Source: a phage. From it: a stretch of 64,000 nucleotides of DNA. Under the pieces are notes generated by a model. The model was not told the origin of the DNA. It saw nothing but the letters and a program-made list of their open reading frames with translations, and ran no database searches. Both the position numbers and the translations under genes were made by a program. Where the stretch lies: NCBI GenBank assembly GCA_012441205.1, contig GCA_012441205.1_4705.1, one strand, 5' to 3'. Below, piece after piece: positions 9,932 to 59,756 of this stretch (position 1 is its first letter; each line of letters begins with the position of its first letter).

Positions 9932-9977
9932 CATAAACCCCCTCTCCCTTCCCTGCTGGGTTGGGAGAGGGATTATG
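9932..9977. repeat. GGAGG-stem palindromic hairpin element (family copy) at convergent gene junction
   Basis: CATAAA-CCCCCTCTCCC-ttCCCtgctGGGtt-GGGAGAGGG-ATTATG; lies between the stop of the + gene (9922) and the stop of the - gene (9978). Confidence 0.6.
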
Positions 9978-17314: not shown

Positions 17315-18157
17315 ATGCATAAATTTACCATTCCTGAAGACCCGATTACACTGCAGACCCTTTGGGATTCACATCGTGCTTTATCAATGGAAGGCTTTGC
17401 GCAAGACTTCGCTTCACTTACCGCAGTAACGAATCTTCGCAGTATGTTTACCAACGGTAAGAAGTTTGTTACCGATTGGCTTAAGAAACGTGATGTGACG
17501 GTTTATCCTAAAGTTTTCGATGACCTCGATACGATTTTTAGCAACAACGCTTACAGCGATCTCATTGGGTATCGTGCTTTTATTCCGAATGGTTTAAATG
17601 CGCCGATGTCAGATTATGTTGTTGCTTTAACTCAGAGCCTGGATAGCGTGATTGGCACCATCCTACCTGATTTGGATAAGCTGACCGTAACGTGCGCTAA
17701 AGCCGTCAACGACGTTAACTTCCGTCGTAGTAGTGGTATGGCTCAAACGCTACCTAAAAACGATCCAGAGAACGTTCTAGAGACGTTACGTGCGATGTTC
17801 AAACAAGGGACGGTAACACAGACCACTGTAGGCCGTGCATATAAGAACGAAGATGATATTCGTCAGATCGGAAAAGATCTGGATGCTTCCCGTATCCGTG
17901 CGCTTGACGTTAATCCTAAAGACGTGAAGAAGGCAATCGAACGTTTCATGGAGGTAGCTGACCGTTTAACCGAAATCCTGGTTCAAGACTACAATGAAGG
18001 TGCGGTGAGCAACGCGATGATTCGCGATATTAGTGACGCTATCTACCAAACAGCCAAGCAGGCTGAACTGTATGCGTTTCTCGTGAACGCTTTGGCTGAG
18101 GCGATCATCGCATATAACGACACTTGGGACGCCGTTAAAAAGAACGCGAAAAAATAA
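17315..18157 (+). CDS. hypothetical protein (280 aa)
   Basis: ATG with GAGGA upstream. Confidence 0.6.
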   Translation: MHKFTIPEDPITLQTLWDSHRALSMEGFAQDFASLTAVTNLRSMFTNGKKFVTDWLKKRDVTVYPKVFDDLDTIFSNNAYSDLIGYRAFIPNGLNAPMSDYVVALTQSLDSVIGTILPDLDKLTVTCAKAVNDVNFRRSSGMAQTLPKNDPENVLETLRAMFKQGTVTQTTVGRAYKNEDDIRQIGKDLDASRIRALDVNPKDVKKAIERFMEVADRLTEILVQDYNEGAVSNAMIRDISDAIYQTAKQAELYAFLVNALAEAIIAYNDTWDAVKKNAKK

Positions 18158-18165
18158 CATAATAA

Positions 18166-18201
18166 CCCACCCTACTACCCCGTTAAGGGCGGTAGGGTGG
18201 G
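18166..18201. repeat. palindromic hairpin (variant of the junction hairpin family)
   Basis: CCCACCCTAC / GTAGGGTGGG outer stem, inner CCC-gttaa-GGG apex; between convergent genes ending at 18157 and 18209. Confidence 0.5.
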
Positions 18202-20170: not shown

Positions 20171-20220
20171 TGTAAACCTCATTAATCATTGTCCGTATGA
20201 TAGCCCAAAGTTGTACGGTA

Positions 20221-20772
20221 TTACCGATTACCGTCAGTTGACGTTGGTTGATTGCGATCGATTTTCATTGACCGTAATTTTCCACCATTAGTTACACACT
20301 GATTGCGCTGTTCGACGGAGGCCAGACTGTTACAGACATAATAAGTATCGATAAAACGCTCAACGCGTTCTTGAAACTTCCTCCCGGCAACTTGCTCTTT
20401 TTCAAAAGTTCGTAATGCACGATCGACCTCACCTTGGAGAATCCGGTTCTGTTCAACCATACTGTCTATTAAACGGCCTCGCACTTCGTTCGATGTGTAG
20501 AGTTGATGAATCAGTTCTCGGTTGGTGTCTCGCGCATAACGCAATGTTGCATTTTCCTGACGTAAACTACTCACGTCAGCCATCAAGGTAATGATTTTTT
20601 CGCCAGCGAATAACGTCACGATACCCAATACGATGAAAAAGCCCGTAATCAAGAATATCGAGGACTGTCGAGCTCCATCTCGACGATAGCGTGTGGGCGG
20701 TCGCTTACTTCGCCGAAACAACTCGCGAAGAAAAGGGAAAAGCCAGGGCAACGCCTTGAGTGTAGTAAACAT
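20221..20772 (-). CDS. membrane-anchored coiled-coil protein (183 aa)
   Basis: N-terminal hydrophobic segment SSIFLITGFFIVLGIVTLFAG followed by a charged, heptad-like region; preferred start ATG 20772 (AAGGA upstream). Confidence 0.5.
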   Translation of the reverse strand: MFTTLKALPWLFPFLRELFRRSKRPPTRYRRDGARQSSIFLITGFFIVLGIVTLFAGEKIITLMADVSSLRQENATLRYARDTNRELIHQLYTSNEVRGRLIDSMVEQNRILQGEVDRALRTFEKEQVAGRKFQERVERFIDTYYVCNSLASVEQRNQCVTNGGKLRSMKIDRNQPTSTDGNR

Positions 20773-20826
20773 GCGTGTGTCCTTGATAGTATGAAATTTC
20801 CAATACAACTTAACCGAGGACGTCGA

Positions 20827-22167
20827 ATGATTAGTATTTTTGGTTTTTATACGTACAAAGGGTACGCTAATAACCACCCAAAAACCACGGCGAAATTCGG
20901 TGAGTTCAGTCAGCACAGTGCTACGTTCAGTCGCGAAATCGGCATCTATACCAACACGGCGTACGCACGTACGACCTTATTAGTGTTGAATGCCGAAAAC
21001 GAAGCTGGTGAAGCACAAACGCTGAATGACGACACCGCAGGCCGCATTCTTCAGGTTGGTCAATGGTTGCTGGAAAAAGCCTCATCAGGCGAAATCCAGG
21101 ATGACCGAGACCAGGTTATCGGCTACCTAAAAGACGACTTCACAACGTATCTGGATTCTATCGACATCCCAACACCCACCACCGATGGTACCGTCTATCT
21201 ACCGGCGTGGATCAGTTTCAAGATAACCGCCACCGGCGATGTCGTCAAGATTTGGTTGTCTGATAGCGTATTCCAAAGTCAATATCCAAAATACGAATAT
21301 GAAGTCGTTCCCCCTGTTCCTAAGGATCAGTTAGATACCTTCTTCGAAGATCTGGCAACATTGAAGAAACTGGTTGACAGTCGAAGCAGCGAGAAACTGA
21401 CCGAAGAAATCAACGAGGTGCGCGACCAATTCCCAGACACACAATTGTGGACGAAAACATATAAAGCGTACGATTACACCGACGATTCGAAATATATTAA
21501 TACCGATTGGACGGTGATTATCTACGGTGCAGCAGGTAACAACATTGATAATATCAAGGAGTTCCTGCAAAACTGGATTCTTAGCAATAGCACGCACGGA
21601 CGTCCAGACTGGGAAATCGTTCTGCCGGATCTTTTTATTCCGACGGAACACATCTTCATTCCAATCTGGAACCGCCACAGTGCGCCAGAAATGACCAATC
21701 AGGCACGTATCTATAGTCCTATATTCGATGATTCGTTGATGGATACCTACCTGAAAAACTTTGCTGATGGTTACGGCGAAACCGCCGAAGTCCGTAAATC
21801 GCTTCAAGCGGTGCCGACGTTGTGGCGCTCGATCGGTTTCTTAAGCGTTGGTAACTCACGTAACCGAGACGGTAAACTTAAGTTCTACGATCGTTGGCCG
21901 CAATACGCGCTCATCAGCACAACCAGCATCGATATTAACCGTATCGATGATGCGACACGTGAATTCATCACGTTCACTTACGAAATGCTGAAACTGGCAG
22001 AATCGCTGACCGAAGACGACCCGGTACCGTTGGGTTATAGTCGTGTTACGCGTGGTAGCAATAGCTTCTTAGCGAAAAGCCACAACGATGTTCAGTATCT
22101 CTTCTTAACAAAAGAAGCGTTCCTGAAGAAAATGCCGGATGAAGCCGACACGCCTGTTGGAGGTTGA
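20827..22167 (+). CDS. hypothetical protein (446 aa)
   Basis: ORF; preferred start ATG 20827 with GAGGA 6 nt upstream (track start 20791). Confidence 0.6.
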   Translation: MISIFGFYTYKGYANNHPKTTAKFGEFSQHSATFSREIGIYTNTAYARTTLLVLNAENEAGEAQTLNDDTAGRILQVGQWLLEKASSGEIQDDRDQVIGYLKDDFTTYLDSIDIPTPTTDGTVYLPAWISFKITATGDVVKIWLSDSVFQSQYPKYEYEVVPPVPKDQLDTFFEDLATLKKLVDSRSSEKLTEEINEVRDQFPDTQLWTKTYKAYDYTDDSKYINTDWTVIIYGAAGNNIDNIKEFLQNWILSNSTHGRPDWEIVLPDLFIPTEHIFIPIWNRHSAPEMTNQARIYSPIFDDSLMDTYLKNFADGYGETAEVRKSLQAVPTLWRSIGFLSVGNSRNRDGKLKFYDRWPQYALISTTSIDINRIDDATREFITFTYEMLKLAESLTEDDPVPLGYSRVTRGSNSFLAKSHNDVQYLFLTKEAFLKKMPDEADTPVGG

Positions 22168-22169
22168 TT

Positions 22170-22796
22170 ATGGCTGTAACACGCATGACGCCAAGTCCCG
22201 GTGCGGTCGGGGTATTCACAGTATCAGCGCCGTTTACCGTTGGTGCGTCAACGCTATATACCGTTACAGCGTTGCGAAGATTCAGCGAAGTCATCGGTAG
22301 TGGAATCGATCTATTTACGGAACTGTACGAACCGTTATCAATAGACAAATCCACATTCGAAGCGCATCTCGAAGCGAATGCTTATCTCGTCACGTTGCAA
22401 CCGGATTACGGTGCACCCGTACTGGTACCTGATACGTATATCACGTCGTACCCAAAGAACGATTCATTGCGGTATCGTCGCATTATTCTGGGTATCGATT
22501 TCGGGCCTCTTCCTCCCGGTCTTGACCTTTCGTATTTAACAACGATATTGAAAGGTAAGGCCAGTGATATTCTTGGTGTCGAACCTGAAGTTAAAACGAT
22601 GGAAATCACTCTCGATGATACCGTTACTCAGGAACAACATCAGATAAACGAAGCCCGTCGTCAGGCCGCGATAAAAGAGCGAGATACCATATACGCACGT
22701 TGTGAAACGCAAGAGAAGCAGATAACGGCTTTACTTGCAACCCAAAAGCAACTTATCAAATTGCTTCAAGACGCCGGTATCAATCCGACACCTTAA
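22170..22796 (+). CDS. hypothetical protein (208 aa) with C-terminal coiled-coil-like region
   Basis: ATG 22170 with GGAGG 6 nt upstream; overlaps the preceding stop. Confidence 0.6.
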   Translation: MAVTRMTPSPGAVGVFTVSAPFTVGASTLYTVTALRRFSEVIGSGIDLFTELYEPLSIDKSTFEAHLEANAYLVTLQPDYGAPVLVPDTYITSYPKNDSLRYRRIILGIDFGPLPPGLDLSYLTTILKGKASDILGVEPEVKTMEITLDDTVTQEQHQINEARRQAAIKERDTIYARCETQEKQITALLATQKQLIKLLQDAGINPTP

Positions 22797-22839
22797 CATA
22801 TTCCCTCCTCCTTCCCTGTTGGGTTGGAGGAGGGTTATG
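22797..22839. repeat. GGAGG-stem palindromic hairpin element (family copy)
   Basis: CATA-TTCCCTCCTCC-ttCCCtgttGGGtt-GGAGGAGGG-TTATG, immediately after stop 22796. Confidence 0.65.
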
Positions 22840-22848
22840 CTGTCAAGC

Positions 22849-22864
22849 AAAAAAAAAAAAAAAA
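22849..22864. repeat. A16 homopolymer tract
   Basis: 16 consecutive A, 10 nt downstream of the hairpin. Confidence 0.9.
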
Positions 22865-22909
22865 TGATAGTCACAGGCTCTCCAATGAAGGAGAGCCGTG
22901 ACCGTCAGT

Positions 22910-23611
22910 TTAAGATGCAGATAATCTCGCGTACTTCTGGCGAACATGGTTCTTACGGCGAACTTCGTCGTCCTCGTCGCGCCATTCGAGGTAAGCAACG
23001 AATCGACGTAACTGCGCCGCCGTCATCGTTGACGAGCGGTCTTCTACGTCTAGAACAACGTAACGAACATCACCAACGCCATCGCAATCAACGTAACTGA
23101 ATACCAAAAGGCCATCGCCGTACTCAACGATGGTAACTTCGAATCGTTTATCGAACAAATAAAACAGTTCCGATTCAATGATCATCGGAATGACGCATAA
23201 ATCAGCACGATTGAGGATTTCCATCATCACCCGTAACGCGCGAGGAGTATGGCGAGCGAACTGGTCGTTAAAACGTTGTTTCATCGCTTGTTCCACGCCA
23301 TCTGTTTTTGTTCCAAACCACGGACGTACTACAGATTTCGGTGGTGTAAGACGAAAGCGATATGCTTGTATAAACAACAGAATATCAGCGACGTTAGGAA
23401 ATTCTTCCTGGTCTTCGTATATCTTGCGGATAATATCCGGAATCGTAACCATCAAGTATTTCTTATCGCCTCCCACTTTCTCGAGATTAGCAATATGTCC
23501 TTCTACCACAGGCTGGTAAACGAAATTATACCAATGACGGTATCTTTCAGTACGTTGGTAGTTTGGGATAAAATTAAGAATAATACTCACTGCGCGTTTT
23601 AATGGGTTCAT
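22910..23611 (-). CDS. hypothetical protein (233 aa)
   Basis: ORF with AAGGA upstream of ATG 23611. Confidence 0.6.
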   Translation of the reverse strand: MNPLKRAVSIILNFIPNYQRTERYRHWYNFVYQPVVEGHIANLEKVGGDKKYLMVTIPDIIRKIYEDQEEFPNVADILLFIQAYRFRLTPPKSVVRPWFGTKTDGVEQAMKQRFNDQFARHTPRALRVMMEILNRADLCVIPMIIESELFYLFDKRFEVTIVEYGDGLLVFSYVDCDGVGDVRYVVLDVEDRSSTMTAAQLRRFVAYLEWRDEDDEVRRKNHVRQKYARLSAS

Positions 23612-23625
23612 CGGAAGGATCCTTC

Positions 23626-24039
23626 TTATGTTTTAATATGCACATCGTCAATCCCCTCGGTAATCCAGCCGATGGGAAGGACAATCGTTGTTATCCTGTT
23701 ATGGGTGTAGTGGTTGAGAAAATGGAAATAGTAATTTTTGTTAGACTGTTCGATCCGCAGGTCGAGATGCGCGTCTTCAGGTAACCGTAACCAAGCACCG
23801 TACAGTTCATTAAACTTACGCTGAATTTTACCGGGGTTCATTGGAACCCCACGACCACGACGATGTAGCTGACGTAATGATTCAATCAAACACTCAGAGA
23901 TACCCGTTGTCGTTCCGTTATCGCTTGTATCAATAACGATGAACTCTCGTGACCCACGACCGAGATAAAAGCCAGCGACAAAAGCTGCAGCAACAAAAAT
24001 TATCGTACCGATACCAATATACCAATAGTAAGTATCCAT
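23626..24039 (-). CDS. small membrane protein (N-terminal TM helix)
   Basis: Preferred start ATG 24039 (GAGG upstream); hydrophobic IGIGTIIFVAAAFVAGFYLG. Confidence 0.5.
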   Translation of the reverse strand: MDTYYWYIGIGTIIFVAAAFVAGFYLGRGSREFIVIDTSDNGTTTGISECLIESLRQLHRRGRGVPMNPGKIQRKFNELYGAWLRLPEDAHLDLRIEQSNKNYYFHFLNHYTHNRITTIVLPIGWITEGIDDVHIKT

Positions 24040-26955: not shown

Positions 26956-26996
26956 ACCATCCTCCCAACCCGTAAGGGAAGGGAGGATGAAATATG
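26956..26996. repeat. GGAGG-stem palindromic hairpin element (family copy)
   Basis: CCATCCTCCC-aaCCCgtaaGGGaa-GGGAGGATG then AAATATG; between convergent genes. Confidence 0.6.
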
Positions 26997-34017: not shown

Positions 34018-34048
34018 ACAGAAGAAAAAAAAAAGAAATGCAATACAA

Positions 34049-34088
34049 CCTCCTTCCCTAGCCGTCAAGGCCGGGGAAGGAGGATTAT
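34049..34088. repeat. GGAGG-stem palindromic hairpin element (family copy); A10 tract just upstream at 34025-34034
   Basis: CCTCCTTCC-ctaGCCgtcaaGGCcgg-GGAAGGAGG then ATTATAG; between convergent genes. Confidence 0.55.
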
Positions 34089-36755: not shown

Positions 36756-37055
36756 TTAATGTTTAGGTTCCGTTTTGTGTTGTGCGAGTAATGTGTTGAT
36801 CTGCTCCCGTTGTTCTTTTAAGCATGCAGGAAGCTGGTCTTCCCGTACCGTTCCGATTTCCAACGTGATGTACCAACGTTGTTCGGAAGCCTGCCATTGA
36901 AAACTGCTCTGTAACCTCAGGATGCTAGGATCACGTACCTTGCTTGCACTGTAACGGTTGAACCAATCCAGGTATGCTGCTTTCCCTTCCTCGTCAGCGA
37001 TGTAACGCTGCACGCTGTTCTTCCCTTTGTTCTCGTATCCCGTTGCACGTATCAT
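36756..37055 (-). CDS. hypothetical protein (99 aa)
   Basis: Preferred start ATG 37055 overlaps upstream stop as ATGA; ORF track extends to 37109. Confidence 0.45.
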   Translation of the reverse strand: MIRATGYENKGKNSVQRYIADEEGKAAYLDWFNRYSASKVRDPSILRLQSSFQWQASEQRWYITLEIGTVREDQLPACLKEQREQINTLLAQHKTEPKH

Positions 37056-37834: not shown

Positions 37835-37920
37835 TTAAAAAGTTCCTCTGTTTCACGTTAATTAAACAACGTATTGATTTCTATTTGACAGAATACGAAC
37901 ATCGTACGTATCTATCACTT

Positions 37921-37976
37921 AGGTAACGCTTACGCGTCGCGTTCATGATACCATGCATCATGAAGGTAATATAGCC
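37921..37976 (+). promoter_or_regulatory. conserved intergenic element, copy B
   Basis: AGGTAACGCTTACGCGTCGCGTTCATGATACCATGCATCATGAAGGTAATATAGCC; near-identical to 12203-12254. Confidence 0.4.
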
Positions 37977-38085
37977 GTGAAAGGATTTGTGTTAACGCAA
38001 GGGTTTTGTTTGTTTTTTAAGAAGGGATGGATTTAGAAGAGGTGTTTCAAGGAAGGTAAACGAGAATAGGTATTTTGATTTAAGT

Positions 38086-38210
38086 AAGATGTTATCTGTA
38101 TCCGTTAGAAGTGTATTGTCTAAGTTATCTTGTTTATCTTAGGTTTAATCGTTTTTATCTTGGTATGTTTAAGTTGTTTTTATTTAACTGTTAAAATGCT
38201 TATCTTCAAA
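38086..38210. repeat. AT-rich tract with reiterated TTATCT/TTATC motifs (iteron-like)
   Basis: gTTATCTgta, gTTATCTtg, tTTATCTtag, tTTATCTtgg, cTTATCTtc within about 120 bp. Confidence 0.5.
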
Positions 38211-38220
38211 ACAATGGATA

Positions 38221-38269
38221 ACATGTGTTTACTACGCTCGTTGAGTTATAACTCAACGGTAACACATGT
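38221..38269. repeat. nested palindrome (cruciform-capable)
   Basis: Outer arms ACATGTGTT / AACACATGT enclosing inner arms CGTTGAGTT / AACTCAACG. Confidence 0.6.
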
Positions 38270-38428
38270 CATCTGTGCATTACACTACGTTACATGCTAG
38301 TTAAATCGGATAACTCAAAAAAACATTTGTGATACTCTTCTTCACGTTGTTCATCAGAGTATCTCGTCTATACTCATTGCATTCGTATACGACATAACCG
38401 TTACACGCTAACGCTACGCTTATAGCTT

Positions 38429-38495
38429 GATAACTCTAAGGATAAAAACATAAACTCGCTTCGCTCGTTTAGTTTTTCTTTTTCTTAGAGTTATC
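38429..38495. repeat. 12-bp perfect inverted repeat GATAACTCTAAG / CTTAGAGTTATC separated by 43 bp
   Basis: Read directly at 38429-38440 and 38484-38495; GATAACTC also recurs at 38308. Confidence 0.6.
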
Positions 38496-38661
38496 CTGTT
38501 GCTCGTCTCTAAAGGACTTCGCTCCTCCCCCGTCCCCCGAAGGGGCCGAGGTCGTGGAAATTTTACTTTCCAAATACATTTACAACATCTGTAAACTTTT
38601 ACTCCAGGTACTTAATCTTATCATTAGAAATTATAAAAGAGAAAATAAACACAAACATAAA

Positions 38662-38698
38662 CCTTCCCCCGACCCGTAAGGGAAGGAGGAAGGGAGAG
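38662..38698. repeat. hairpin related to the junction family (conserved apex CCCGTAAGGGAA)
   Basis: CCTTCC-cccgaCCCgtaag-GGAAGG then GAGGAAGGGAGAG; directly 3' of minus gene stop 38705. Confidence 0.45.
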
Positions 38699-38704
38699 AT
38701 TAAA

Positions 38705-39737: not shown

Positions 39738-40283
39738 ATGTCTACTTTAGACTTTAACAAAGCAGCGAAATCCCTTCTGCTTGATCTTATTAACACCAAA
39801 GCGACCCGCACATTGGCTGAAGAAGAACTGCAGTTCGGTACTCCGCAGGAATCTTCCGAACATGAAAAGAACACCGTTATTCAGCTGGACGCGGCGGCTG
39901 AAGCAGCTAACCTGCAGGGTACTCAGCAGTTCTACTACGATCGTCTGGCTCTGTCTGACGTTTTCGCTGATGTAACTGGTGATGTTACTTTCGAACTGCC
40001 GCACGGTACTGACAGCATTCAGGCTTCTGAGCTGGTAAGCAAGCTGGTCACCAAATTCGGTCTGGCTTCCCTGAATGGTGAAATCAGAGAAGAAACCTTC
40101 CAGCTGTCTGCCGGTACTGTTGATGAGGTAATTCTGAATGCGATCGAGGGTGGCCTGGTATACACTGGTACTCTGCGAGTTGCCCTGACCTACGCACTGG
40201 CACCAAAAGACGAACTGGCAACCGTTCTGGCGAATAACGTAGCTGAAGGTTTCGAGAAACCGACCGTTAGCGTTGTTGGCTAA
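39738..40283 (+). CDS. paralogous-family protein (181 aa), strongly codon-optimised, probably highly expressed
   Basis: ATG 39738 with GAGGA upstream; near-exclusive use of CTG, GGT, CGT, CCG, GAA, GCT, ACT, TCT codons; architecture parallels the neighbouring 297-aa protein. Confidence 0.7.
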   Translation: MSTLDFNKAAKSLLLDLINTKATRTLAEEELQFGTPQESSEHEKNTVIQLDAAAEAANLQGTQQFYYDRLALSDVFADVTGDVTFELPHGTDSIQASELVSKLVTKFGLASLNGEIREETFQLSAGTVDEVILNAIEGGLVYTGTLRVALTYALAPKDELATVLANNVAEGFEKPTVSVVG

Positions 40284-40478
40284 TAAGCACATAGAGCAAT
40301 AGTATGGGTTTTGTACAGCTCGGCTATTGATCTTCTACAATTTGGTTGTAACAATCTGCGTGGTTGCACGCTTATCTTTCTCATTGAACGCTTCGTATGA
40401 AGCGTGGTGTTGAAAGGGTTGTGGATCTCCTCAAGCGGCCAGGGACCCAGACCAACCTGAATAAACACAAACACATGT

Positions 40479-40512
40479 TAAGCCCCTCCTCATCCGTTAT
40501 TGGGTGGGGGGG
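40479..40512. repeat. degenerate hairpin related to the junction family
   Basis: CCCCTCC-tcatccgttattgggt-GGGGGGG, between convergent genes ending at 40283 and 40577. Confidence 0.3.
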
Positions 40513-40576
40513 GTCTTATACGTCTTTATGCGTTCCGTTCGTTCTGGAGCGTTTTAGGACGGTTTATGATGGTGTT

Positions 40577-47067: not shown

Positions 47068-49221
47068 TTATAACGTTTCGAAGTCGGTTGCTTTGATAAC
47101 CGCGTTGAAGTTGGCAAGGAATTCCTTAAGCAGTGCTTGGAAGACATCACGAAACGCTGTGTTCGTCTGCAAGCTGGTTAAATAATCGTTCTTAAGGTAA
47201 TCGCTCAGCTTACCGATCTTCTGCATCTTCTCGCCGTCTTGGTTCTCTCCAGGTTCTTGGCTGTTGATGTTAACCCATTTGATCCCTTCGAGATCACCAT
47301 CGGCAAGGAAGTTGGCGGGTGTCTCATCGTCGTTCAGGATTTTAATCGTATCACTGGATTCAATGCCACCGTAAGCTTCCAGAAGCTGGTTGACTGTTAG
47401 CTTATTGGTGTTGATTGAACCATTGACACCATCGATACCGATGCCTGCACCTGTGATGGATGTCGCCGAAAGATCGATCGGTCCGGTTAACTTACCACCG
47501 TTGATCGGTAACGCACCAACTTGCTCAGCGGTGTGTGTATGGTCAGCTAACGCCGCAAACGCCACGATAGACTTATATGTCGAATACGGCGTCATATACG
47601 CTGATTGGTTGGTGTTGTCAGCCGCTTCAGTATCGGTAGCGACATTAAAGTTCTGCACGTTGCTGAGACCGACCTGCACCTTCGTTACTTCATGCGGGTT
47701 GTTCTTATTGACAACGTGTGCTGCAAAACCATCACCAGCTAAAGCAGTGATTGCCGCTTTTGTCGCAGCCGGTGTCATATAGCGGTTGGTTGCTTCACCC
47801 GTTTGCGCCTCTTCGTCGGAAGCAACAGGATAGTTCTCAACGCTTCCCAAACCGACCTGAGATTTTGTTACTTGGTGTGGGTTTTCGGTATTCGCAATAT
47901 GACTACTGAACCCTTGACCCGCCAGTTGCTCGATTGCGTAACGAACAAGTATTGGTGTCATGTACTTGTTGTTAACTTGACCATCGATAGCTTCTTGGGT
48001 GGTGGCAACCCCGAAGTTTTGCACGCTCCCCAACCCAACTTGAGATTTTGTTACCCCATGGGGGTTATTGGTGTTACCGATGTGTTCGGTTACAGTTGGG
48101 GTGATTAATGCTGCGATAGCGGCTGCTGTGGTCGCAGGTGTCATGTATTTATCGTTAGCAACACCCGCAGCAGCTTCTACGTTAGATGCTAAACCGTAGT
48201 TCAATACACTACCCAACCCAACCTGAGCCTTGGTTACCCCATGGGGGTTGTTCTTGTCTCCGGTATGGGTTGTCAACGAAGCATTAACGTTATCGATACG
48301 TGTACTTAAGCCATCGGTGATTGCTTTGATTGCGGCTCGTACACCCGCTGGAGTCGTGTACAGATTTGTGGCCGTACCGGTAATAGTTGTATTACTATCG
48401 GCTACACCGTAGTTCTCAACGTTTCCGAGTCCGATCTGTGCCTTGGTCACCTTGTGTGGGTTGTTGTAGTTGCTGATGTGCGCAGCGGCACTATCACCAC
48501 TCAGGTTAGCGATCATCTTACGTGTCATCGCCAACGTCATGTACAGATTTTCACCGATGGTTTCCAGATCGCTCTCGGTCGCCGTTGTGAAGTTCTGCAC
48601 ATTCCCTAACCCAACCTGAGCCTTGGTTACCCCGTGGGGGTTATCGCGACGATTCTCGTGCTGCAACAATGCGGTCATTGCTTTATTGAACCCTTCTTCA
48701 AGCGGTTCTTTCAATGATTCGATTGCAGCTACCACATCGTCCCACGTCATTGTGTCGGTTTCGACATTATGCTGGTGGTTAATTGGCGGGAATACGGAAG
48801 GAACGTCGGCAACCTTTTCCCAGAATGTAACGCGAGGGTCGTAAAGGTTGTTGGCTAAAACGTTAAGAATTTGCTGCTGATCGAGTGTAAACTCACCCCC
48901 CAGTGAATAGTAGTTCAGTTGCAACTGTCCACTGAATGCGGTGTCCAACAGCATGATGGAACCGTATAATTCCAGGCCGGTCAGCGCAGCCATGGCACGG
49001 AAGGGGTGAGTGCATAAAAAGTCAACGCCTTCTTCCAGATACGCGTTTGTTTCAGGGTTATAGATCTTTAACCCATTACGAAAATATGGCGCGTATTTAG
49101 GAACGAGAAAGTTAAATCCGGTCCCCGTGGAAGGACGGACAGTGACGAGTTCTTCTGGAACCCATGCGCCATCCAAATTCCCCTGCGGGTTATACGGAAG
49201 GCGTTTAATTTCATCTGTCAT
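47068..49221 (-). CDS. tail fibre protein with six tandem repeats (717 aa); no S74 domain
   Basis: Repeats NPHGVTKAQVGLGNVQNF..., NNPHKVTKAQIGLGNVENY..., NNPHGVTKSQVGLGSVQNF... and others; distinct C-terminal domain. Confidence 0.75.
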   Translation of the reverse strand: MTDEIKRLPYNPQGNLDGAWVPEELVTVRPSTGTGFNFLVPKYAPYFRNGLKIYNPETNAYLEEGVDFLCTHPFRAMAALTGLELYGSIMLLDTAFSGQLQLNYYSLGGEFTLDQQQILNVLANNLYDPRVTFWEKVADVPSVFPPINHQHNVETDTMTWDDVVAAIESLKEPLEEGFNKAMTALLQHENRRDNPHGVTKAQVGLGNVQNFTTATESDLETIGENLYMTLAMTRKMIANLSGDSAAAHISNYNNPHKVTKAQIGLGNVENYGVADSNTTITGTATNLYTTPAGVRAAIKAITDGLSTRIDNVNASLTTHTGDKNNPHGVTKAQVGLGSVLNYGLASNVEAAAGVANDKYMTPATTAAAIAALITPTVTEHIGNTNNPHGVTKSQVGLGSVQNFGVATTQEAIDGQVNNKYMTPILVRYAIEQLAGQGFSSHIANTENPHQVTKSQVGLGSVENYPVASDEEAQTGEATNRYMTPAATKAAITALAGDGFAAHVVNKNNPHEVTKVQVGLSNVQNFNVATDTEAADNTNQSAYMTPYSTYKSIVAFAALADHTHTAEQVGALPINGGKLTGPIDLSATSITGAGIGIDGVNGSINTNKLTVNQLLEAYGGIESSDTIKILNDDETPANFLADGDLEGIKWVNINSQEPGENQDGEKMQKIGKLSDYLKNDYLTSLQTNTAFRDVFQALLKEFLANFNAVIKATDFETL
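47640..48660 (-). repeat. coding tandem repeat array (tail-fibre shaft repeats), second fibre
   Basis: Six approximately 120-150-bp repeat units; shares near-identical stretches with 41990-42820. Confidence 0.6.
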
Positions 49222-50609: not shown

Positions 50610-50652
50610 AACATAACCCTCCTCCAACCCGTAAGGGAAGGAGGAGGGAATA
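50610..50652. repeat. GGAGG-stem palindromic hairpin element (canonical family copy)
   Basis: CATAA-CCCTCCTCC-aaCCCgtaaGGGaa-GGAGGAGGG-AATATG; between convergent genes ending at 50606 and 50658. Confidence 0.65.
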
Positions 50653-59685: not shown

Positions 59686-59706
59686 ACGGATGTAAAAAAA
59701 ATAACA

Positions 59707-59756
59707 CATAGTTAACCTTCTCCCCAACCCGATGAGGGAAGGGGAGAAGGGCTATG
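59707..59756. repeat. GGAGG-stem palindromic hairpin element (family copy)
   Basis: CATAG-ttaa-CCTTCTCCCC-aaCCCgatgaGGGaa-GGGGAGAAGG-GCTATG; between convergent genes. Confidence 0.6.

Follow-up and report, generated by a model that had tools for sequence, protein, structure and literature searches.

A run of sixteen A residues lies between two convergent genes in the window, the 64,000-nt stretch of phage DNA analysed here, and raises the question of whether the tract belongs to a coding sequence that its length could switch or to a signal that ends transcription. The first-pass annotation had placed the run at 22849-22864, coordinates that were confirmed exactly, and had considered a phase-variable or frameshift-prone coding site or, alternatively, a structural feature of the terminator region. 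It was the alternative that held up: the 113-nt gap between the genes very probably contains two facing terminators, the A-run being the U-tract of the one on the minus strand and the GGAGG and ATG beside it belonging to a motif of the plus strand. In these terms the junction is a terminator region of the ordinary intergenic kind, although its U-tract is unusually long and hypervariable. The run was the sole homopolymer longer than 10 nt in the 64-kb window, for which about 6e-5 A/T runs of at least 16 nt are expected from base composition. The features of the junction and the related hairpins elsewhere in the window are listed in Table 1.

Table 1. Features of the convergent junction around the A-run and hairpins of the same family at other convergent junctions (window coordinates).
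Feature	Position	Strand	Description
Upstream convergent gene	22164-22796	+	Goslar gp249 homologue, DUF7194, PHROG 3241; stop codon TAA at 22794-22796
Hairpin 1	22803-22834	.	Found by folding; member of the convergent-junction hairpin family
TTATGCTGT, tail of hairpin 1	22835-22843	+	Putative 3' tail of phiKZ-type terminator motif, TTATKYYGT
87-codon basic ORF	22837-23100	+	Judged a chance open frame, not a gene
A16 (T16/U16 of the minus strand)	22849-22864	-	Probable U-tract of a minus-strand intrinsic terminator
Hairpin 2	22866-22906	-	16 pairs; between the minus-strand stop codon and the U-run
Downstream convergent gene	22910-23611	-	Goslar gp001 homologue, 233 aa
Family hairpin at convergent junction	9940-9971		
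Family hairpin at convergent junction	18166-18201		
Family hairpin at convergent junction	26958-26989		
Family hairpin at convergent junction	34049-34083		
Family hairpin at convergent junction	50617-50648		
Family hairpin at convergent junction	59716-59750		

Goslar is a nucleus-forming jumbo phage of 237 kb that belongs to the Chimalliviridae. A megablast search of a phage collection with window positions 22000-24000 gave Escherichia phage vB_EcoM_Goslar (MK327938/NC_048170) as the best relative at 96.6% identity and returned no other match, and the window phage is assigned by sequence similarity as a Goslar-like chimallivirus. Further relatives were drawn from IMG/VR, a metagenome collection and Logan contigs. 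Ten relatives, namely Goslar, the IMG/VR contigs L003 and L005 and seven metagenome contigs, were compared with the window as a set of 11 genomes, while another IMG/VR match (L004) was Goslar itself and was left out as a separate relative. DNA identity of the relatives ranged from 97.0% down to 79.5% over the 1.45 kb that hold both convergent genes and the junction. Five Logan contigs with an identical gp001 protein and 98.2-99.9% DNA identity to the window were added, and these together with the 11 genomes form the 16 genomes and contigs in which the T-run was compared.

The gene next upstream of the gp249 homologue encodes a virion structural protein (Pfam/PHROGs), while the gp001 homologue had no family match in Pfam or PHROGs. 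With 19 synonymous and 7 non-synonymous codon differences from Goslar, the gp001 homologue is evidently under purifying selection. Folding of the whole junction gave z scores of -7.9 for the plus strand and -8.2 for the minus strand relative to shuffled sequences. No Rfam family was found in the junction at E values up to 1 or in the whole window at the gathering score, and there were no tRNA or tmRNA genes in the window. A sigma-70 promoter scan across the junction identified nothing spanning the A-run, and its counts were at chance level. A TTGACA adjoining the T-run on the minus strand was rejected as a promoter, as it had no -10 partner and was replaced by TTGACG, TTGGCG or TTTACG in relatives.

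The ATG at 22837 opens an 87-codon frame that reads through the A-run as five lysines (Lys5) and runs antisense over the 3' end of the gp001 homologue, as previously annotated, and its conceptual product is highly basic (pI 11.8, 22 Lys and Arg residues). A real small basic protein that is switched or frameshifted by the length of the A-run would account for the GGAGG ahead of the ATG, for the 87 open codons and for the way in which run length leaves some genomes in frame and others out, as in a phase-variable gene. However, the frame was open in only five of the 11 genomes (the window, L003, L005, L009 and L012) and was broken within the intergenic region in the other six, including Goslar, where an A17 run brings the ATG frame to a stop after 21 codons, and L014, where a stop at codon 3 is independent of the run. 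The 191-nt overlap with the gp001 homologue differed from Goslar by 15 substitutions, of which 1 was synonymous and 14 were non-synonymous in the ORF frame, whereas the same substitutions were 12 synonymous and 3 non-synonymous in the frame of the sense gene, and coding constraint was thus lacking in the ORF frame. The GGAGG is the base-paired 3' arm of hairpin 1 and would be sequestered in a stem of -26 kcal/mol, and the combination of a GGAGG arm and TATG recurs at other junction hairpins with no ORF after it. No match to the ORF was found in Pfam or PHROGs. Longer antisense ORFs, of 113 and 117 codons, are present in the gp001 homologue as well, so that one of 87 codons is unremarkable. A small basic protein is therefore extremely improbable, and the ORF is very probably a chance frame, neither a gene nor translated, that should not be annotated as a gene. 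The in-frame run lengths (16, 13, 16 and 13) were considered as a sign of a preserved frame and rejected, as five open frames out of 11 together with the stop in L014 correspond to chance.

The proposal of a phase-variable or frameshift-prone coding site did not survive this comparison, as the tract lies 3' of both genes and in no conserved frame. The junction resembles the contingency loci of Neisseria, Haemophilus and Campylobacter in having a long run of one nucleotide that varies in length from one near-identical strain to another. In contrast to those loci, the run lies neither within a conserved frame nor between promoter elements, and changes in its length would thus have no on/off read-out.

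The hairpin drawn at 22797-22839 in the first-pass annotation is real, the stem-loop listed in Table 1 being extended to those limits by weak outer A-T pairs. Its sequence is CCCTCCTCC-tt-CCC-tgtt-GGG-tt-GGAGGAGGG, with a pyrimidine-rich 5' arm and a purine-rich 3' arm (purity 1.00/1.00). A hairpin of the same design was present at all seven convergent junctions of the window (7/7): the first arm is rich in pyrimidines and the second in purines, a 2x2 internal loop separates these arms from a CCC-N4-GGG tip, and the flanking sequence is usually of the form CATAwT...wTATG. In the Goslar genome 43 strong intergenic hairpins were found, and several hairpins of the family were marked as putative terminators by the depositors of the GenBank record. 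Genome-wide, Goslar contains about 25 or more hairpins of the family, only some of which carry that annotation.

A terminator of related design has been described in phiKZ by Putzeys et al. 2024, in which a hairpin is followed by TTAT according to the motif 5'-BCCYCCCCHWWDGGGRRGGBYTTATKYYGT-3' (PMC10914365). The motif was common to 61 terminator regions that had been defined by RNA 3' ends mapped with ONT-cappable-seq and that were predicted to be intrinsic by ARNold, and bidirectional termination regions occurred between convergent phiKZ genes (PMC10914365). It recurs in phage 201phi2-1 as motif A (PMC11512511). The 9 nt that follow hairpin 1, TTATGCTGT, are an exact fit to TTATKYYGT, and the tail read TTATG-YYG-T/C in 10 of the 11 genomes and CTATGCCGT in L014. 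The full 30-nt phiKZ consensus had no matches in the window at up to 3 mismatches because the Goslar-type hairpin is longer, and only the 3' half of the consensus matched the hairpin 1 region, with 1 mismatch. Hairpin 1 and TTATGCTGT would therefore represent a Goslar-type variant of the phiKZ terminator design rather than a strict member. The two have in common a pyrimidine-rich 5' arm and a purine-rich 3' arm followed by a fit to TTATKYYGT, as well as recurrence many times per genome at the ends of genes, including bidirectional use. They differ in that the Goslar-type hairpin is longer, with a 9-bp stem, a 2x2 internal loop and the CCC-N4-GGG tip, and in that the phiKZ terminators were defined by mapped RNA 3' ends while termination at the Goslar-type hairpins is predicted from sequence.

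The ATG of the basic ORF is part of a TATG at 22836-22839 within the tail of hairpin 1. In Goslar, 33 of the 60 oriented flanks of strong intergenic hairpins contained TATG no more than 10 nt 3' of the stem, an oriented flank being the side of the hairpin that is downstream in the direction of transcription, compared with a background of 1.9% (p about 1e-40), and the TATG started 2-7 nt past the stem. At same-direction junctions TATG was located on the sense side in 13/26 cases and on the antisense side in 3/26, and at convergent junctions it was present in 20/34 flanks. Examples of such a TATG in the window are those at 22836, 26340, 26993 and 50651.

The phiKZ late-promoter consensus is 5'-TATG-3' with transcription starting at the G (PMC4666361), and TATG is bound by the beta-like subunit of the phage polymerase (PMC12809450). 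The TATG of the junction could accordingly be read as a late promoter of the phage non-virion RNA polymerase (nvRNAP), starting at its G and giving a plus-strand RNA with an A16 leader that is antisense to the gp001 homologue, and the strong enrichment of TATG after Goslar hairpins would fit such a signal. Yet TATG is described as 'necessary but not sufficient' and is frequent in the genome (PMC4666361), its equal frequency at convergent and same-direction junctions fits termination better than initiation, and the ORF could not be encoded by an RNA that begins with the G of its ATG. A late promoter at this site is very unlikely.

A further but doubtful possibility is that TATG acts as a termination or pause signal, in which the nvRNAP re-recognises TATG on the non-template strand and pauses, so that a hairpin with TATG takes the place of a hairpin with a U-tract and the junction contains both kinds. 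The polymerase would then stall 2-7 nt past the hairpin, and the U11-17 module would serve as an additional terminator of the host type, the strength of which could drift as the tract changes in length. The orientation-specific occurrence of TATG after hairpins, even where there is no downstream gene, offers a testable idea about termination in chimalliviruses.

A second strong hairpin, overlooked in the first-pass annotation, lies directly beside the A-run. Its core at 22876-22897 reads GGCTCTCC-aatgaa-GGAGAGCC, and hairpin 2 alone folded at -27.5 kcal/mol. Read along the minus strand, the order of elements is the stop codon, 3 nt, the 16-bp hairpin 2, 1 nt and U16, with the U-run starting 1 nt past the outer G-C/A-U pairs and 5 nt past the main stem. 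Hairpin 2 was not reported by the built-in pattern scan for terminators because of a one-base bulge and a strict tail rule, the scan allowing no bulge and requiring a T-run within 2 nt of an uninterrupted stem; it was judged by folding and alignment.

Hairpin 2 followed by ATCA or ATCG and then the T-run occupied the same place in all 11 genomes. In the alignment of these genomes 99.4% of pair cells were standard pairs, and compensatory double changes had occurred at two pairs (G-C to A-U and U-A to C-G), while a control in which the 3' partners were slid by 1-3 columns reduced pairing to 35-48%. The shuffle control was modest at 18/500, and the alignment covers only 11 closely related sequences. 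Several of the substitutions result in G-U wobbles that pair solely in the minus-strand RNA, and folding energies were -23.6 to -27.9 kcal/mol for the minus strand, compared with -19.7 to -22.8 kcal/mol for the plus strand in 5 relatives. This modest but consistent evidence suggests that the structure of hairpin 2 has been selected in the minus-strand transcript.

Hairpin 2 and U16 together very probably form a canonical intrinsic (Rho-independent) terminator of the minus strand. As in the canonical terminators of bacteria and phages, a GC-rich stem-loop lies directly past the stop codon with a run of U immediately behind it, the junction is convergent and the pairing is kept with compensatory changes. 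A U-tract of roughly 7-9 nt is typical of E. coli terminators, whereas the tract in the junction is hypervariable at 11-17 nt, and a further difference is that termination would presumably act on a multisubunit RNAP encoded by the phage and not on that of the host.

The T-run adjoined hairpin 2 in 16/16 genomes and contigs, down to 79.5% DNA identity. Its lengths in the 11 genomes were 16 (window), 17 (Goslar), 13, 16, 13, 15, 12, 12, 12, 13 and T3CT9, and those in the five Logan contigs were 11, 12, 13, 17 and at least 14, although single lengths may carry homopolymer sequencing error. The run was the fastest-changing character of the region. One contig (L024) differed from the window over 2.3 kb by one mismatch and one extra T in the run. 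The earlier view of the tract as slippage-prone was in this way borne out between genomes, where replication slippage would be expected to produce such rapid changes in length. Nevertheless, an uninterrupted stretch of at least 11 T was present in 15/16 genomes and contigs, the lone interruption being a T-to-C change (T3-C-T9) in the most distant relative at 79.5% identity. That a run of at least 11 T has persisted across approximately 20% divergence, with only one interruption, points to selection for a long tract of T and not for an exact length. Tract length would be unreliable as a strain marker.

All homopolymers of at least 9 nt in the Goslar genome were plus-strand A-runs, equivalent to T on the strand that bears 206/245 ORFs, and each adjoined a strong hairpin. 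Four of them, A9 at 36823, A9 at 48086, A11 at 146584 and A12 at 200204, come before hairpins of the family where genes converge; the pair of A11 and A10 at 108101 comes before a hairpin that differs from these, between genes of the same strand. The A16/17 run is an extreme member of this class of hairpin-adjoining A-runs.

Conceivably the run is functionless, a neutral product of slippage that has grown in the gap between two terminators able to act without it. Consistent with this, its length changes faster than its surroundings (11-17 nt in contigs that share at least 98% identity with the window), most junction hairpins of the phage lack an adjacent long T-run and the phiKZ-type motif terminates with TTAT and not with a U-tract (PMC10914365). 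A neutral run should, however, decay by point substitution, which is at odds with the uninterrupted T in all but one of the genomes and contigs. In addition, the run always adjoins hairpin 2, which itself shows compensatory changes, and the Goslar runs of at least 9 nt share one polarity, with T on the main coding strand, and adjoin strong hairpins. A functionless run is improbable, and the U-tract of the minus-strand terminator is the preferred reading.

Two further A-runs in the window lie beside junction hairpins and differ in length from Goslar, namely 34025-34034 (A10 compared with A6 in Goslar) and 59694-59701 (A8 compared with A9). On the minus strand both are located 14 nt downstream of a family hairpin, a spacing that a classical U-tract would not allow, except where the A-U-rich outer stem is formed.

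In the arrangement of two facing terminators, minus-strand RNAs of the operon that contains the gp001 homologue would fold hairpin 2 (22906-22866) 3 nt past the stop codon and then enter U16 (22864-22849), and with this anatomy of hairpin and U-tract they should end inside the run. Plus-strand RNAs of the gp249 homologue would fold hairpin 1 (22803-22834), followed by TTATGCTGT, and would end at the run or ahead of it. The two 3' ends would be kept apart by the poly(dA:dT) tract, and each polymerase would be stopped from reading antisense into the other gene, so that read-through from the long minus-strand operon would not run antisense into the plus-strand genes for virion proteins, nor the other way round. 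Selection would keep the tract long while its exact length would drift by replication slippage, a drift without consequence because the tract is non-coding. The position of the RNA 3' ends at these sites is what we infer from the sequence, as is the identity of the terminated polymerase, which would presumably be a multisubunit RNAP of the phage: chimalliviruses have such enzymes of their own for transcription, and the host RNAP is not used by phiKZ-like phages (PMC4666361). An annotation of the junction should show two terminators that face each other, which could not be done in the Goslar GenBank record because the record is cut inside the junction.

The Goslar record begins within hairpin 1, its first position being equivalent to window position 22810. 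The ends of the record are an exact 55-nt duplicate (positions 1-55 and 237253-237307, both equivalent to window 22810-22864) that stops within the A-run, which is A17 at the start of the record and 16 A at its end. Three of the five Logan contigs also ended inside the junction, two in the palindrome of hairpin 1 and one in the T-run. These ends, together with the inverted hairpin tips and loops and the nested hairpins of some relatives described below, might be taken to indicate a signal at the level of DNA, such as a genome end, a packaging site, a replication origin or terminus or a recombination hotspot. Against this, the identical Goslar ends are in our reading the signature of a circular contig, produced by an assembler from a de Bruijn graph, and not physical ends. 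The junction is crossed without a break in the window and in at least 8 long contigs, and cumulative GC skew had no turning point at 22-24 kb. Phages of the phiKZ type package DNA by a headful mechanism and have permuted ends, which would also speak against a fixed terminus. There is very little likelihood that the tract is a signal of this kind. The length of the Goslar record is overstated by 55 nt, and the terminators of the junction are unannotated in it. Assemblers should take the tract as a warning, given that the Goslar record terminates within it and that contigs from short reads are broken in the tract or next to it.

The loops and tips of several hairpins were flipped to the reverse complement between close relatives while their stems were identical. 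The loop at window 22884-22889 read AATGAA in one and TTCATT in the other of the window and L005, and tips of the forms AACCC..GGGAA and TTCCC..GGGTT were exchanged between window 22812-22825 and L014 and between window 9949-9962 and Goslar 224393-224406. These look like small inversions generated by template switching or recombination within a hairpin. In L009 and L013 a complete copy of the hairpin CATCCTCCC..GGGAGGATG, found in the window at 26958-26989, was nested in hairpin 1 at the equivalent of 22812-22825, and the tip of the nested hairpin had opposite orientations in the two contigs. The nested copies suggest that terminator hairpins have been copied between sites.

Elsewhere in the window, unusually long stretches without a long ORF were present by crude gene calls at 37835-38704 (870 nt) and 20183-20790 (608 nt), neither of which had an Rfam or tRNA match. 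At 40484-40513 there is a hairpin, CCCCTCCTC...GGGTGGGGGGGG, with a G8 run as its 3' arm, that lies in a long stretch at 39875-40576 that is non-coding by crude ORF calls, and its equivalent in Goslar (17603-17637) is annotated as a putative terminator.
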